From Thermoproteota archaeon (lineage in GTDB: Archaea; Thermoproteota; EX4484-205; JAAOZP01), in assembly GCA_038850115.1 (NCBI GenBank), contig JAWCMB010000005.1, forward strand, positions 1-52,948: a stretch of 52,948 bases of DNA, written 5' to 3'. Positions 21,655 to 42,933 of the stretch are shown piece after piece. The notes under the pieces are model-generated. The model was not told where the DNA came from. It worked only from the letters and a program-made list of their open reading frames with translations, and made no database searches. A program made the translations under genes and the position numbers. Within the stretch, counting starts at the first letter, position 1; every line of letters starts with the position of its first letter.

Positions 21655-22345
21655 ATGCAGATAGGCATCCTAATTTCCGTCGAGGGATTCGGAAAAGAGA
21701 TTACCTTCCTAGGCGGTTTAGCTGATTTTGTTGAGGTTCTTCTTACAGGGAATCAGGATGTTTCGCACATTTACGAAAGCGGGCATAGGCTGCTCGCCCA
21801 CCTTGCCGAGCTTGATTCTAAATGCTTCAGAACATTGGAGCAGGCGACGCTTCTGGGCGTTGACAAGGCGACGGTGCATTTTTCCACTAGGAAACCGATG
21901 TCTTTTTGACGAGAAGATAGGGATACTTAGCAGGCTTCTGGGGAAGGCGGCTTAATACGGTGTCATCCTACGCCTGGAGAACACAGAGGAGAATGTTGAC
22001 ACGTTGGAGAATGCCTTTAACAGGATGCCGGGGTTAAGGTTTTGCCTAGACATAGGGCACGCGAACCTCTTCTCCAATAATCCTGTTGACTTCATAGATG
22101 CTTTCAGCGATAGACCGGATCACATCCATATCAGTGATAATTACGGTGGCGATTCTGAGGACGATGATCTCCATCTGCCACCCGGCGATGGAGCCATGGA
22201 TTTCCAACAAGTTTTCTAAAAGCTGAAAGCCATTAAATACGATAAAACAATGACGCTTGAGCTTCATCCCCGCTTCGACGTAAATGCTAAGGCGAAAAGC
22301 CTACGTCACCTAAAAAGCTGGTTAAGCTCATGCCATGACTATTGA
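21655..22345 (+). pseudogene. Sugar-phosphate isomerase/epimerase (xylose-isomerase-like TIM barrel) pseudogene
   Basis: LENT, CLDIGHAN, HIHISDN, DLHLPPGDG, TLELH motifs spread over a frameshift near 21905 and two in-frame TAA codons. Confidence 0.8.
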
Positions 22346-22420
22346 AGAACATCGGAAGATGGTTCTCCGTTTCTGCGAATCATCAGAATCATCCTATTGG
22401 GATGGGAAGTGCTCTTCAAA

Positions 22421-23092: not shown

Positions 23093-23205
23093 TAGCCCGG
23101 GAGAGATTCGAACTCTCGTCAAGGGGTTTCTCCGCAAGTGCTAAACTGCACCAAAGCCCCCCATGTTTGCCGTTACAATCAGCGCCTTTTTGGCTCCACC
23201 GGGCT
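23093..23205 (-). tRNA. tRNA-Gln(TTG) with introns at 10/11 (23178..23195) and 37/38 (23128..23150)
   Basis: A1-U72 acceptor AGCCCGG/CCGGGCT typical of archaeal tRNA-Gln; both inserts are bounded by BHB motifs; anticodon arm GGGGG-CTTTGGA-CCCCT after splicing. Confidence 0.88.
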
Positions 23206-23263
23206 TCCCGGGCTTGTTGAAAATCTGCTTTTGGGGATTTAATAACTTTTTACCTGTAGGGAA

Positions 23264-24028
23264 TTGCTGAATAGAAGAGGGTTTTCTGAAGCAATACTGG
23301 ACTTTAAGGGCGACATTAAAAACAACGTTATCGATGTTTACCTTCCTGGTATAGATAAGCCGGTTTTCTCAGAGGTATGCTTCAACCTTCCTTCCTACGG
23401 GGTTACGCTTGGCCTGAGGGTTATCGAGCGTAAGGTCTACGATATCGGATCCGGTGGAAGGAGGTTTGATTGCCACTGGATTCGCGTCAACGCGACTCTG
23501 AGGGCTTCCAGGGATGTTTTCCGAGTGCTATTCCGCATCGGGCATGGCGGAGGATGGGTGAATAAGCCTTGGCTGATACTGAGAAGAGGCGGATACGCGT
23601 CAGACCATTGGATAAAGTGGACGCCCAGTGAGAAGCTTATTGTGGATTTCGATGCCGAAGGCTTCAGAAACAGGTTCATACTAAACTTCAACAGTACGCC
23701 AAACAGAGGTAACGATTTTCTAAGCAGGGTTTTAAGCGAGGACGAGTTGAAGAGCATTCTCGAGCAGCCTCCGTATGAGAAGCTGAACCTCAGCAAGGCT
23801 CCGAAAAGCCTGAACATAAGGCTTGCCGGAGAGAAGGTTACTAACGAAACAGTCTGGGTCACCGGCGCGGCGATCTCATGCGTATTATACATTACGCTCT
23901 TCATAATGGTTAACAGGATAAAGTTTGAGAGAGTTGGTCAGCGATTAACCGCAGGCCAAGTCCTAAGGATGATCGAAGCATGTCTTGGAGAACGTTCCGA
24001 GCAGGGGGAGTTCAAGCAAGATACTTGA
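23264..24028 (+). CDS. Hypothetical protein with one TM; probably the N-terminal part of the next ORF
   Basis: TTG start, TM VWVTGAAISCVLYITLFIMV, 44-bp out-of-frame overlap with 23985..25760. Confidence 0.5.
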   Translation: MLNRRGFSEAILDFKGDIKNNVIDVYLPGIDKPVFSEVCFNLPSYGVTLGLRVIERKVYDIGSGGRRFDCHWIRVNATLRASRDVFRVLFRIGHGGGWVNKPWLILRRGGYASDHWIKWTPSEKLIVDFDAEGFRNRFILNFNSTPNRGNDFLSRVLSEDELKSILEQPPYEKLNLSKAPKSLNIRLAGEKVTNETVWVTGAAISCVLYITLFIMVNRIKFERVGQRLTAGQVLRMIEACLGERSEQGEFKQDT

Positions 24029-25760
24029 CGCATTAGGAAGCATTATTGAAAACTATTCCCCGGAGGAGATGGAAGAGAAAGGTGGAACAATTATGAGGAG
24101 CATAGTATCGATGTGGATCAAGGACGGGGACGAAGCCATAGATTCTCTGAACAGCTGGCTAAGCGTAAACTCGAAGGACTTGGATAAGGTGAAAGCACTT
24201 GAAGACGTTTTGCTCAAGATAGGGGGAGACGCTGCAGAGGGTGTTGGAGCAAAGATAGGAGATATCGTCGATAACTATCTCAATATTAATGGTGAATACG
24301 GTAAAAAACTGGCCGAGAAATTCCTTGATACGGTGCTGAAGAACCCAGAGAAGTTTAGACCTTTCTTTATGGAGGTAGGAGAACATGAAATTACGGTAAA
24401 GAAGAACGGGTACCCTACTGTGCTTTTAAGTGGTAGGGTTGAAGGGACATTTAGAGTAAAGGTTTACTGGGAATATTGTGAGAAAAGCGGGAATGTTGAA
24501 TTCTGGACTAAGCTGGATGGAGATAAGATTCACATACCGGGAGAGCAGACAAATGAAATACTCAAGGCGATTTACGGGGATGTCAAAGACACGGAAGAGA
24601 TCGAAGTTAAAGTGAAGACAACAAGAATATACTTCTATGATTATAGGCTCTTCTTTCCAACCGAGGGCTTCAAAGAAGGCGGAGGGATCACGCTCAATCT
24701 CTACAACAATAGGATGAGGGTTGGAGGAAAGGAATATTCTTTTGAGCCAGATACCTATGTATGGGAAGGAAAACTTCGTGTTGCGGCAATATTCTCTGAT
24801 TCCAAGAACTGGAAGGGCAATATTCTCAAATTCATCTTCGTAGACGACGGGAGTATAGAGATCAAATACGGTGAAAATGTTTACCCTATTAAAGAGATTA
24901 GGTTTGACGAGGATAATTATGCAATCCGAATAACCTATGAGATAACTTACGAGTATCCTTCTCGTATTTCCACGACCGTGTATAGCTTCAAACATGAGTC
25001 CTTGGATTTTCAACTTAATAAGAGATTCAAGCTTAAGTGGGATTATAATGTTGAAGGAAAAAGTGAAATTGGTCTCAAAGAAAGGCAACTTCTTACCTGC
25101 TTGGGTTATGATGCACTGAAGGAACTGGAGAGTAGAATTGACAAAAGTGGCGATGATACTCAAAGGGTCATCCTCTGTGTACGTCTCGATAATGGAAAGT
25201 CGGTTTATTGTTGGAACAATAAATTTACATCACGTATACCTCCTGAGGCGAAGTTCATAACCTCGATAGAAGTGATTTCTCTTAAGGACCTTATAGATTT
25301 GAAGAAATTGGCAATAAAGGTTCTTGATGAGCCTCAAGACAAATTTATGAAAGGAAAGTTAGGTGAGGCAATAACGGATAGGCTGTTTATGGATTATATC
25401 CTCACTGAAATTGCGAAAAGAAGTGGAATTCCAAAAGACAGGTTAGAGATAGAATTCTTGGGAGAGAGTGGACAGCCTGATTTCCAGATAAAAATTAGTG
25501 GGACAGATAAGCGTATTGCCATTATAGAAGTAAAGTATGTAGGAGATCCTGAGGACACTGGAGGATTCGAAGATCAGCTGGACAAGGCAAAGGCACAGAT
25601 CGAGAGACGCTTTGAAGATCCTAAATGGACAGCTCCCTATGGAGTTATCGTGGTCATCGCATGGTCTTCCGAACAGATACTCGGCGATGAGCCATATCCA
25701 GAGATGGTGGGAAGCTATAAGAATCCGTATATAGAGTACTTTAGTAGAGAAGGAGGCTAA
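23985..25760 (+). CDS. Large protein with C-terminal PD-(D/E)xK (restriction-endonuclease-fold) domain; candidate polymorphic toxin
   Basis: C-terminal KGKLGEAI...GQPDFQIK...IAIIEVKY...QLDKAKAQI fits the E...PD...ExK...Q nuclease pattern. Confidence 0.6.
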   Translation: MENVPSRGSSSKILDALGSIIENYSPEEMEEKGGTIMRSIVSMWIKDGDEAIDSLNSWLSVNSKDLDKVKALEDVLLKIGGDAAEGVGAKIGDIVDNYLNINGEYGKKLAEKFLDTVLKNPEKFRPFFMEVGEHEITVKKNGYPTVLLSGRVEGTFRVKVYWEYCEKSGNVEFWTKLDGDKIHIPGEQTNEILKAIYGDVKDTEEIEVKVKTTRIYFYDYRLFFPTEGFKEGGGITLNLYNNRMRVGGKEYSFEPDTYVWEGKLRVAAIFSDSKNWKGNILKFIFVDDGSIEIKYGENVYPIKEIRFDEDNYAIRITYEITYEYPSRISTTVYSFKHESLDFQLNKRFKLKWDYNVEGKSEIGLKERQLLTCLGYDALKELESRIDKSGDDTQRVILCVRLDNGKSVYCWNNKFTSRIPPEAKFITSIEVISLKDLIDLKKLAIKVLDEPQDKFMKGKLGEAITDRLFMDYILTEIAKRSGIPKDRLEIEFLGESGQPDFQIKISGTDKRIAIIEVKYVGDPEDTGGFEDQLDKAKAQIERRFEDPKWTAPYGVIVVIAWSSEQILGDEPYPEMVGSYKNPYIEYFSREGG

Positions 25761-25764
25761 AGGG

Positions 25765-26472
25765 ATGAGCCAAAGCTTCCTCAATAGGCTGAAGGACTAC
25801 TTAGATGAGAGGCTGAAGAATGAGGTTCTAGTGCTTTCCTTCAAACCGTTTGAAATAGAGATATTTCCTCCATCTGACTGGCGGAGATGGTGGGTAAGGA
25901 CACAGAGCTCTACTATAGTCAGGTCTGTTATGGAGCATAGTGACGGGACAGTAGCTGTAGAATCAGAATTATTGGATAAGGCTGGAGACGATATAGGTGA
26001 ATGCTTGGTTAAAAGTTATCGGTTTAAGTTCGCTAAAGCAAAGGGCAACAAGGAAGAGGAGGAAAAAGTGTGGAAAGCTCTTAAGAAAGAAGAGGAGGAA
26101 GCTCATAAAGATTACCTTAACAGGATGAATTTCGAAAAGCATCTCAAGAAATCCTACTGGCGTGCATTCCTAAGGTTGCTTTGGTTCGATGAAGTGGGTA
26201 GAAGAATATCGGAGAAATATGGTGTTGAAGTGAGTGTAGCTATCGATAAAGTCGACTATGACGCTGGTTTAGAATCGAAGTTCGATGGAAGAAATATGGA
26301 TGAAAAGAAGAAATTCGAGGAGATAAAGAAGAGGGTTGAAGCACTTATCGATGCGTATAAGCTCTGCCGACTTTTCACTCATATCTATCCGAATGAGAAG
26401 AGGAAGGAATACTTGGAGTTCTGTAATGCTGTCCTCACGAAGTATGGAATAAAAAGAAAGAGGGGGTTATAG
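25765..26472 (+). CDS. Hypothetical protein; candidate immunity protein
   Basis: Starts 4 nt after the nuclease-tipped ORF; soluble and highly charged; no motif recognised. Confidence 0.55.
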   Translation: MSQSFLNRLKDYLDERLKNEVLVLSFKPFEIEIFPPSDWRRWWVRTQSSTIVRSVMEHSDGTVAVESELLDKAGDDIGECLVKSYRFKFAKAKGNKEEEEKVWKALKKEEEEAHKDYLNRMNFEKHLKKSYWRAFLRLLWFDEVGRRISEKYGVEVSVAIDKVDYDAGLESKFDGRNMDEKKKFEEIKKRVEALIDAYKLCRLFTHIYPNEKRKEYLEFCNAVLTKYGIKRKRGL

Positions 26473-42834: not shown

Positions 42835-42933
42835 GCGGGGGTCGCCAAGCCAGGCCAAAGGCGGGAGGCTCAAGACCTCGGGGGAGGGACCTCTTCCCGT
42901 AGGGGTTCGTGGGTTCAAATCCCACCCCCCGCA
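42835..42933 (+). tRNA. tRNA-Leu(CAA) with 14-nt intron at 37/38 (42875..42888)
   Basis: GCGGGGG/CCCCCGC acceptor, GGAGG-CTCAAG|intron|A-CCTCT, long variable arm, GTGGG-TTCAAAT-CCCAC. Confidence 0.92.

Follow-up and report, generated by a model that had tools for sequence, protein, structure and literature searches.

A probable polymorphic toxin–immunity module of Brockarchaeota and its decayed copy beside a tRNA-Gln gene

What do three closely packed open reading frames (ORFs) beside a tRNA-Gln gene of a Thermoproteota archaeon encode, and is the system to which they belong still whole? The ORFs, which we call ORF-A, ORF-B and ORF-C, lie on contig JAWCMB010000005.1 (assembly GCA_038850115.1), within a stretch of 52,948 nucleotides that we refer to as the window; the window also contains an archaeal signal recognition particle RNA, and the names of its homologues put it in the Brockarchaeota lineage. 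Comparison with relatives leaves us confident that the locus is the remnant of a module built around a giant gene of Brockarchaeota. That this module is a polymorphic toxin–immunity module specific to Brockarchaeota, of which the window holds a decayed, orphan-like copy, is in our judgement the probable explanation, and we give similar credence to the intact module being a toxin–immunity system, with the toxicity, neutralisation, export and delivery that we infer for it. Evidence for this reading is that related giants share long N-terminal carriers but switch abruptly to unrelated C-terminal tips, each of which is accompanied by its own family of downstream partner genes.

The features of the window locus are listed below, with positions counted from the first nucleotide of the window.

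23264–24028, plus strand: ORF-A, 254 amino acids; remnant of an ectodomain fused directly to the third transmembrane segment (TM3) and the beginning of the segment after TM3
23985–25760, plus strand: ORF-B, 591 amino acids; pre-tip block, beta-rich middle and C-terminal nuclease fold
23985–24350, plus strand: conserved pre-tip block, ORF-B residues 1–121, reading ENVPSR..RSIVSMWIKDGDEAIDSLNSWLS..GDIVDNYL
24366–25289, plus strand: beta-rich middle region, ORF-B residues 128–435
25296–25757, plus strand: PD-(D/E)xK nuclease-fold domain, predicted toxin tip of type 1a, ORF-B residues 438–591
25752–25756, plus strand: GGAGG ribosome-binding site of ORF-C, inside the last ORF-B codons and 8 nucleotides upstream of the ATG
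25765–26472, plus strand: ORF-C, 235 amino acids; intact cytoplasmic partner, predicted cognate immunity or chaperone protein
23856–23860, plus strand: junction of a 900-nucleotide in-frame deletion, located by blastn and junction alignment against locus L016
23973–23985, plus strand: junction of a 215-nucleotide frameshifting deletion, located by junction alignment against L016
about 23093–23222, minus strand: intron-bearing tRNA-Gln gene, with readable acceptor and T-arm halves, which marks the 5′ limit of the remnant

ORF-A and ORF-B share 44 nucleotides that they read in different frames, and both parts sit in a single protein in homologues such as P0004. Residues 6–86 of ORF-A match the end of a 275-amino-acid ORF at locus L006 with 59% identity; residues 101–201 are 65% identical to residues 4–104 of P0004 and residues 199–237 are 72% identical to its residues 400–438. 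ORF-A has a single strongly hydrophobic segment, VWVTGAAISCVLYITLFIM, which places a transmembrane (TM) helix at residues 197–215, and its ectodomain remnant carries three sequons of the form N-x-S/T. A candidate start of ORF-B is Met37, which has GGTGG 8 nucleotides upstream. An earlier note, made from the letters of the window alone, had described a TM-containing ORF upstream of ORF-B, a 235-amino-acid ORF 4 nucleotides downstream of it and an adjoining tRNA-Gln, all of which we recovered, the last although both ARAGORN and Rfam (at its gathering threshold) missed it. A second tRNA gene, at 42835–42933 on the plus strand, is matched by Rfam and absent from the ARAGORN output; it is probably intron-bearing too.

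The same note had proposed that ORF-A and ORF-B join if one base is removed near 23981 and that the gene is possibly truncated at its 5′ end. Removing base 23980 or 23981 does restore one 831-amino-acid frame, reading ...RMIEAVLENVPSRG..., but a slip of one base does not account for the break. When we aligned the window with its closest DNA relative, L016 (Brockarchaeota GD2_1), the match fell into three collinear blocks (23306–23859, 23856–23975 and 23973–24292) separated by two deletions. The first, of 900 nucleotides at 23859/23860, is in frame, has GGGTTA microhomology at both edges and took out about 295 amino acids, including TM1 and TM2. The second, of 215 nucleotides, is not a multiple of three and removed about 70 amino acids, and it is this deletion that put ORF-A and ORF-B in different frames; we therefore rejected a sequencing slip at 23981. 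The 5′ truncation proved real: homology to relatives begins only at residue 6 of ORF-A, some 190–230 residues are missing from the N-terminus, signal peptide included, and the gene that usually stands upstream of intact copies is absent, with the tRNA gene in its place.

Might the organism's own copy be intact, and the broken gene an assembly artefact made by mis-joining reads of paralogous giants? The setting would permit it, for the genome is a metagenome-assembled genome (MAG) of 115 contigs with at least four paralogous loci, among which the pre-tip block is 70–84% identical. We nonetheless consider an artefact quite unlikely: neither junction falls in repeated sequence, and microhomology there is only 4–6 nucleotides; the pieces follow one another collinearly in a single gene; and what adjoins the 5′ end is a tRNA gene within the contig, not the edge of the contig. 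Comparable remnants also occur in other assemblies (L010, L026, L028–L030 and L047), and a neighbouring gene in the window is interrupted in frame by TAA stops at two places, a defect that is not an error of the indel type. That neighbour, at 21655–22400 on the plus strand, is a xylose-isomerase-like TIM-barrel pseudogene with one frameshift near 21900 and TAA stops reading ..LGKAA*YGV.. and ..QQVF*KLKAI..; its 22004–22216 piece matches Pfam AP_endonuc_2 (E=2e-9). More than one gene in this stretch has therefore decayed. We also considered whether the window remnant and the N-terminus of a giant at the end of contig C93 of the same genome could be one gene split by the assembly, and rejected this, the remnant being internal to its contig and flanked by tRNA-Gln and Yip1.

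Decay that spares the 3′ part of the module apparently also occurs at strain level. Locus L010 (GCA_038862835.1) is 99.9% identical to L011 (GCA_038850585.1) from giant residue ~1530 on, yet of the giant, which L011 has in intact form, it keeps just the last ~990 amino acids, together with an identical ORF-C. A 1-nucleotide deletion at ~8798 shifts its frame, and upstream of the shared part the first 1530 residues are replaced by unrelated DNA with HepT/MNT and MazE/PIN pairs. From its sequence, L010 looks like a case of giant decay with tip and ORF-C kept, parallel to the window. Besides the signal peptide, TM1 and TM2, the giant gene of the window is without the greater part of its ectodomain and some of the segment after TM3. 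What survives in the window (pre-tip block, middle, tip and intact ORF-C) is the content of an orphan cassette. Given its multiple deletions, the window copy has probably lost any role as a deliverable toxin, and its cassette would probably be retained as a source of immunity and a substrate for recombination. For annotation, ORF-A and ORF-B are best treated as a pseudogene or orphan cassette and ORF-C as an intact, conserved gene.

What does the module look like where it is whole? In each context examined, the intact order was a gene of ~400–520 amino acids, a giant gene (1427–2522 amino acids) and, 3–4 nucleotides after the giant stop, an ORF-C homologue; across loci, the stop-to-start spacing between giant and partner is conserved at 0–16 nucleotides. 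The genome of the window has intact modules on contig C3 (a 403-amino-acid protein, a 1594-amino-acid giant and a 224-amino-acid partner) and contig C65 (a 1718-amino-acid giant and a 336-amino-acid partner), as well as a module on C93 (a 408-amino-acid upstream gene and the giant N-terminus) that is truncated where the contig ends. A 37-amino-acid pre-tip relic, 65–77% identical to ORF-B residues 36–72, lies immediately upstream of the C93 module on the other strand (L009, 4424–4534, minus strand). The partner and last 150 giant residues of the C65 module (L008) are 100% identical to those of L037 (JAWCNV010000020.1, MAG JZ-2_201709_bins_51), which reflects either very close populations or a contig shared between bins.

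Scanning species-representative genomes for the conserved membrane module yielded 28 loci in about nine MAGs, with 3–8 loci per genome, nearly all of them from hot springs and labelled Brockarchaeota or unclassified Thermoproteota/Nitrososphaerota. Most giants were intact (1400–1740 amino acids), with intact giants in at least 20 loci. An exhaustive profile search of 1.84 billion cluster representatives yielded no more than 81 relatives and detected no bacterial relatives of the family; the intact three-gene module is restricted to MAGs of the Brockarchaeota lineage. Neither ORF-A, ORF-B and ORF-C nor the intact giants, the upstream protein or the other partner families had a significant match in Pfam, NCBIfam or PADLOC, and no part of the system had a sequence-profile match in the PDB.

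From N to C terminus, the giant consists of a signal peptide, an ectodomain of ~500–800 amino acids that is predicted to be heavily N-glycosylated, a WxGFWDG motif, a TM1–TM2 hairpin, a helical loop of ~100 amino acids, TM3 and a YNWITP motif, followed by the helical pre-tip block (...ENVPSR..RSIVSMWIKDGDEAIDSLNSWLS..GDIVDxYL in the subfamily of the window), a beta-rich region of ~300 amino acids and a C-terminal alpha/beta domain of ~150 amino acids. The upstream protein of ~400 amino acids, a putative surface glycoprotein, combines a signal peptide with a beta-rich domain, a coiled coil and a TM anchor at its C-terminus, and its homologues are all annotated as hypothetical. This architecture may resemble that of S-layer stalk proteins such as SlaB. 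Representative genes for the upstream protein are the following.

L007 8429–9640, minus strand
L009 4652–5878, plus strand
L014 3975–5162, plus strand

One giant departs from this plan: the 2522-amino-acid protein of L011 (2429–9997) bears the same tip and ORF-C cassette on a different carrier, with 6–7 N-terminal TM helices, a sequon-bearing domain of ~1000 amino acids and a second hydrophobic cluster at residues 1288–1388.

Do giants that share an N-terminus differ in their C-termini and downstream genes, as the earlier note suggested checking? They do. In sliding comparisons of giant pairs, identity is 70–90% over the first 1000–1200 amino acids and 15–30% at the C-terminus, and the switch comes abruptly after G-D-I-V-D-x-Y-L. 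Thus the window is 63–72% identical to L006 up to IVDxYL and unrelated thereafter, the carriers of L004 and L005 are 75% identical over ~400 amino acids and then unrelated, and identity between L018 and L019 falls abruptly from 77% to 25% and then to no alignment. We clustered 29 giants by their last 150 amino acids and made a second, independent clustering of the proteins encoded downstream of them; tip clusters matched partner clusters, with type-1 membership identical in both (16/16). The pairs are as follows.

Type 1 tip: 16 members, including the window and C3; partner of the ORF-C family
Type 2 tip: partner a repeat protein of 471–611 amino acids
Type 2b tip: partner a protein of ~200–243 amino acids
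Type 3 tip: partner a protein of 336–367 amino acids
Singleton tip: partner a unique protein of 141 amino acids

The sole mismatch was L033, whose tip clusters with type 2 and whose partner clusters with type 2b. There are thus at least five nuclease-tip families, each with its own unrelated partner family: in profile–profile comparisons with hhalign, the type-2, type-2b and type-3 partners showed no relation to the ORF-C family, and the idea of one common fold family for all partners was rejected on this ground. The type-2 partners (L018 4720–6135, L020 11720–13144 and L006 3308–5143) are built of repeats of ~45 amino acids (..F.LPDGTLVG....L.DGR...FKGD.L...I.G.K..) that have no Pfam match and vary in copy number between loci.

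The pairing also holds within type 1, where pairwise identities of tip and partner are correlated (r=0.84), whereas those of carrier and partner (0.19) and of carrier and tip (0.29) are much less so. For example, C3 and L031 have carriers that are 80% identical, tips that are 24% identical and partners that are 30% identical. Tip and partner travel together, as illustrated by the tip-plus-ORF-C cassette of L011, which is 61% identical to that of L014 while sitting on the unrelated 2522-amino-acid carrier. Orphan cassettes and partner arrays also occur. At L046, the full-length giant and its partner precede a tip fragment that has no carrier (48% identical) and another partner gene (57%); L048 carries a tandem pair of partner genes; and at L044, L045 and L047 partner fragments form arrays, some with a tip and some lacking one. 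No other DNA of the family is as conserved as the pre-tip block, at 70–84% nucleotide identity to ~20 loci with flanks that do not align, a pattern that fits its use as the homology for cassette exchange. Three of the features that define polymorphic toxin systems (Zhang et al., 2012) are found here, namely variable C-termini on a conserved carrier, a tip-specific downstream gene, and orphan cassettes and arrays. The polymorphic-toxin layout that the earlier note had read from the window alone is thus borne out by the shared carriers, switched C-termini, tip-specific downstream families, orphan fragments and the cassette shared with L011.

What would the tip do? In an AlphaFold2 (AF2) model of ORF-B, the motif residues E461, D499, E515-x-K517 and Q538 of the C-terminal domain lie on the expected helix and strands, and homologues conserve these E, D, ExK and Q positions. 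Foldseek matched the domain to BstEII (probability 0.80), MGME1 (0.77), the herpesviral protein UL24 (0.92) and a haloviral PD-(D/E)xK nuclease (0.77), with FokI also among the matches (probabilities 0.77–0.92), which span 130–190 columns. As modelled, the C-terminus of ORF-B is a PD-(D/E)xK nuclease fold, as the earlier note had proposed from its motifs, with the alpha-beta-beta-beta-alpha-beta core and the E, D and ExK residues in place. At the level of sequence profiles, Pfam PDDEXK_9 (PF08011) scored below threshold on ORF-B (14.4 bits against a gathering cut-off of 25.5 bits, E=0.038), and no Tox-REase model of Pfam (Tox-REase-1 to -10) matched ORF-B or the other tip types at E≤1; the type-2 tip has a weak HSDR_N_2 match. 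All tip families that we found keep the D...E-x-K signature and are PD-(D/E)xK-like. Within type 1, the subtype-1b tips of L007 (the C3 giant), L025 and L036 read A-I-I-E-V/M-E-S in place of I-E-V-K, and such lysine-to-glutamate tips could have either a variant active site or none that functions.

The remainder of ORF-B gave less to interpret. The beta-rich middle, which is common to P0001, P0002, L011, L012, L014 and C3, was modelled as all-beta with a predicted local distance difference test (pLDDT) score of ~75–90, and Foldseek returned only weak matches resembling immunoglobulin (Ig), fibronectin type III and carbohydrate-binding module domains. The pre-tip block is helical in a low-confidence AF2 model, and a search with the whole ORF-B model was informative just for the C-terminal domain.

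And what is the partner? ORF-C is charged, lacks a signal peptide and begins 4 nucleotides after the ORF-B stop, in the arrangement GAA GGA GGC TAA, 4 nucleotides, ATG. Read directly, the last ORF-B codons GAA GGA GGC form the GGAGG ribosome-binding site of ORF-C. Many giants end in Gly-Gly because this site lies in their last codons; the alternative of a C-terminal Gly-Gly signal for processing or conjugation was rejected, the ribosome-binding site of a coupled partner gene being the better explanation. The view that ORF-C is an orphan did not survive, as we found 36 homologues at 45–99% identity in a heavily expanded family, always 3′ of a type-1 tip and present in 17/17 genomes of the genus, with up to 15–17 hits per genome, many of them fragments. 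Three homologues (P0029, P0035 and P0038) have N-terminal ankyrin repeats, which Pfam Ank families match in P0035 and P0038.

ORF-C itself has no match in Pfam or among PDB sequence profiles, but an AF2 model from 31 sequences reached a pLDDT of 93, and Foldseek matched it to class I type III secretion system (T3SS) chaperones and their relatives, including ExsC (3kxy), ShcF (1s28), SycE, CesT, SicP and the archaeal protein 3cxj, with probabilities of 0.91–0.98, target-normalised TM-scores of 0.47–0.57, E-values of 0.01–0.03 and ~10% identity. Because T3SS chaperone-like proteins hold specific cargo before export, we propose that ORF-C would neutralise the tip and may keep it export-competent.

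A chaperone-like partner raises the question of whether conflict is involved at all. The giant could instead be a surface machine for cell–cell contact or for DNA exchange or uptake, in which the nuclease processes DNA and the partner serves as a folding or export chaperone; the T3SS chaperone-like fold of ORF-C would suit such a machine, as would a SlaB-like architecture of the upstream protein and the membership of all tips in one nuclease superfamily. However, a housekeeping role does not predict an unrelated partner family for each nuclease family, nor does it predict the shuffling of cassettes between carriers, the orphan fragments and partner arrays, or the 3–8 diverged paralogues per genome and their frequent decay, and we regard this explanation as very unlikely.

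On which side of the membrane does the tip act? We counted N-glycosylation sequons (N-x-S/T, where x is not P) in the giants (18, of which 16 are non-identical) and in the proteins encoded next to them, with the following results.

Ectodomains: 214 observed, 74 expected
TM2–TM3 loop: 13 observed, 7.5 expected
After TM3 (11,013 amino acids): 4 observed, 45 expected
Downstream partners of all types: 15 observed, 17.7 expected
ORF-C family (31 proteins): 25 observed, 20 expected
Upstream protein of ~400 amino acids (33 homologues): 202 observed, 61 expected

The deficit after TM3 is specific to the motif. Reversed, the motif has 52 occurrences in the same region, and none of 300 shuffles gave fewer than 24. 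When the third position of N-x-Z was varied, only S (9 against 29 expected) and T (1 against 17) were depleted, and D, Q, K, E or G stood before x-S/T at the expected frequencies. For the non-membrane ORFs of the genome, the ratio of observed to expected sequons was 0.86. A domain that stays in the cytoplasm permanently needs no sequon avoidance, and the C-terminal ~650 amino acids would therefore meet the oligosaccharyltransferase outside. The counts thus suggest that, at some stage, this part is exposed on the outer side of the membrane and that selection keeps it free of glycans, as might be expected of a payload that crosses another membrane.

These counts bear on a further explanation, in which the giant is a membrane-anchored sensor for defence by abortive infection: its ectodomain would detect a virus or envelope damage, and an antitoxin-like partner would then free a nuclease that destroys DNA, the window copy being dead. 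Hydropathy sets the nuclease in the cytoplasm beside a cytoplasmic partner, in line with such a sensor; effector swapping and many paralogues per genome are known in defence systems too, PADLOC gave a weak mad2 match (E=0.0026), and HEPN/MNT or PIN/MazE genes stand near some loci. Yet it is the effector and partner that vary, whereas the ectodomain, which would sense the threat, stays 60–90% identical; orphan tip fragments with extra partners and long partner arrays are typical of toxin–immunity loci rather than of defence operons; and no defence family of PADLOC or Pfam was significant. A tenfold, motif-specific avoidance of sequons after TM3, set against the genome baseline of 0.86, is also unexpected in a permanently cytoplasmic effector. 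We therefore judge the sensor unlikely and return to the toxin–immunity reading.

In the mechanism that we propose, the nuclease tip would be the toxic payload and the partner (here ORF-C) would bind and neutralise its cognate tip, possibly keeping it export-competent. The ~650 residues after TM3 would at some stage cross to the outer side of the membrane and from there reach a neighbouring cell, and recombination at the pre-tip block and at the boundary between middle and nuclease would swap tip-plus-partner cassettes between carriers. As candidates for the delivery route we observed the Sec-type signal peptide and the three-TM module intrinsic to the giant, with no match to a known trafficking domain. 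More speculatively, the module may be a self-contained toxin-delivery device of Brockarchaeota, in which a surface-displayed giant keeps its ~650-amino-acid C-terminal payload in the cytoplasm with a chaperone-like immunity protein and, on contact, threads it through its own three-TM module into a neighbouring archaeon; we offer this as a tentative idea. Equally tentative is the corollary that sequon avoidance in the payload is the evolutionary footprint of its passage through that module. If true, this would be the first archaea-specific system of contact-dependent inhibition, without derivation from bacterial secretion systems.

Several observations weigh against a deliverable toxin with an immunity partner. 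By hydropathy, with a signal peptide and three TM segments, the tip would lie in the cytoplasm of the producer, and the module is not linked to any known machinery for export or delivery. Sequon avoidance is an indirect argument, drawn from 18 giants that are related to one another. The fold matches of ORF-C have poor E-values (0.01–0.03), and the protein has a helical insertion of ~60 amino acids; its family is fairly conserved (45–80% identity), and some other partners are large repeat proteins of 471–611 amino acids, which is unusual for immunity proteins. Every tip family found is PD-(D/E)xK-like, whereas the tips of classical polymorphic toxins come in many different folds, and E-x-E replaces E-x-K in three of the four subtype-1b tips (C3, L025 and L036), with L043 keeping the lysine. 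The relatives and the window are known from MAG assemblies, and the toxicity, binding and nuclease activity of the tip are predictions from sequence.

How does the module compare with systems already described? With bacterial polymorphic toxin systems (CdiA-CT/CdiI, Rhs and LXG; Zhang et al., 2012, PMC3482391) it shares a long N-terminal carrier, a short junction, C-terminal switching, an adjacent co-varying partner gene, orphan fragments and immunity arrays, and restriction endonuclease (REase)-fold tips are common there. It differs in that those systems have TPS, FHA, RHS, PAAR or LXG trafficking domains, none of which was matched by Pfam on the giants, whereas the Brockarchaeota giant has its own three-TM module and we saw only PD-(D/E)xK-like tips; its host, unlike theirs, has no outer membrane and no known type V, VI or VII secretion system. 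For the hallmarks of CdiA, CdiB and CdiI in particular (TPS, FHA, VENN and CdiB), there was no Pfam match on any giant or neighbouring gene, and the junction IVDxYL differs. The order of the motifs G-K-L-G-E, P-D-F, I-E-V-K and Q in ORF-B is that of Tox-REase-7 (GxxxE, IxD, ExK and Q; Zhang et al., 2012), a likeness to the Tox-REases that extends to the superfamily only. Nuclease colicins and their Im proteins offer an analogy, with a nuclease tip bound by a specific co-expressed immunity protein and a central translocation region, but they have no homology to the module, are plasmid-borne and lysis-released, and use HNH or other nuclease folds. Class I T3SS chaperones, which bind specific cargo in the cytoplasm before export, resemble ORF-C in predicted fold; they differ from it in lacking its ~60-amino-acid helical insertion, and archaea have no type III secretion system.

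Among archaea, the closest parallel is VARTIG of Thermococcales (Makarova et al., 2021, PMC8416519), which is likewise centred on a large surface protein whose C-terminal part is hypervariable and recombines, with variable downstream genes. It differs in having a variable Ig domain, downstream membrane or Ig proteins and no nuclease, in showing no sequence relationship to the giants, and in belonging to another lineage. VARTIG has been compared explicitly with polymorphic toxin systems, its function being unproven, and the archaeal polymorphic toxins were as of 2021 predictions only, with none experimentally characterised (PMC8416519). Earlier, archaeal polymorphic toxin systems were regarded as few and of bacterial origin (Zhang et al., 2012, PMC3482391). 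Nowhere did we find an earlier description of the Brockarchaeota module for archaea. Genomes of Brockarchaeota were published after the 2019 survey of archaeal polymorphic toxins by Makarova and colleagues. Our full-text literature search had no paper on Brockarchaeota toxins among its top matches, the catalogue of that survey (Makarova et al., 2019, mBio) being outside the comparison.

In one lineage of hot-spring archaea, then, a family that has no match in Pfam, NCBIfam or the PDB shows the comparative-genomic hallmarks of toxin–immunity warfare. Antagonism between archaea is poorly understood. If confirmed, the module would add to it a new architecture for carrier and delivery, along with several new pairs of nuclease and inhibitor from thermophiles, and the avoidance of sequons beside sequon-rich ectodomains would provide a signature by which exported, unglycosylated payloads may be sought in other archaea.

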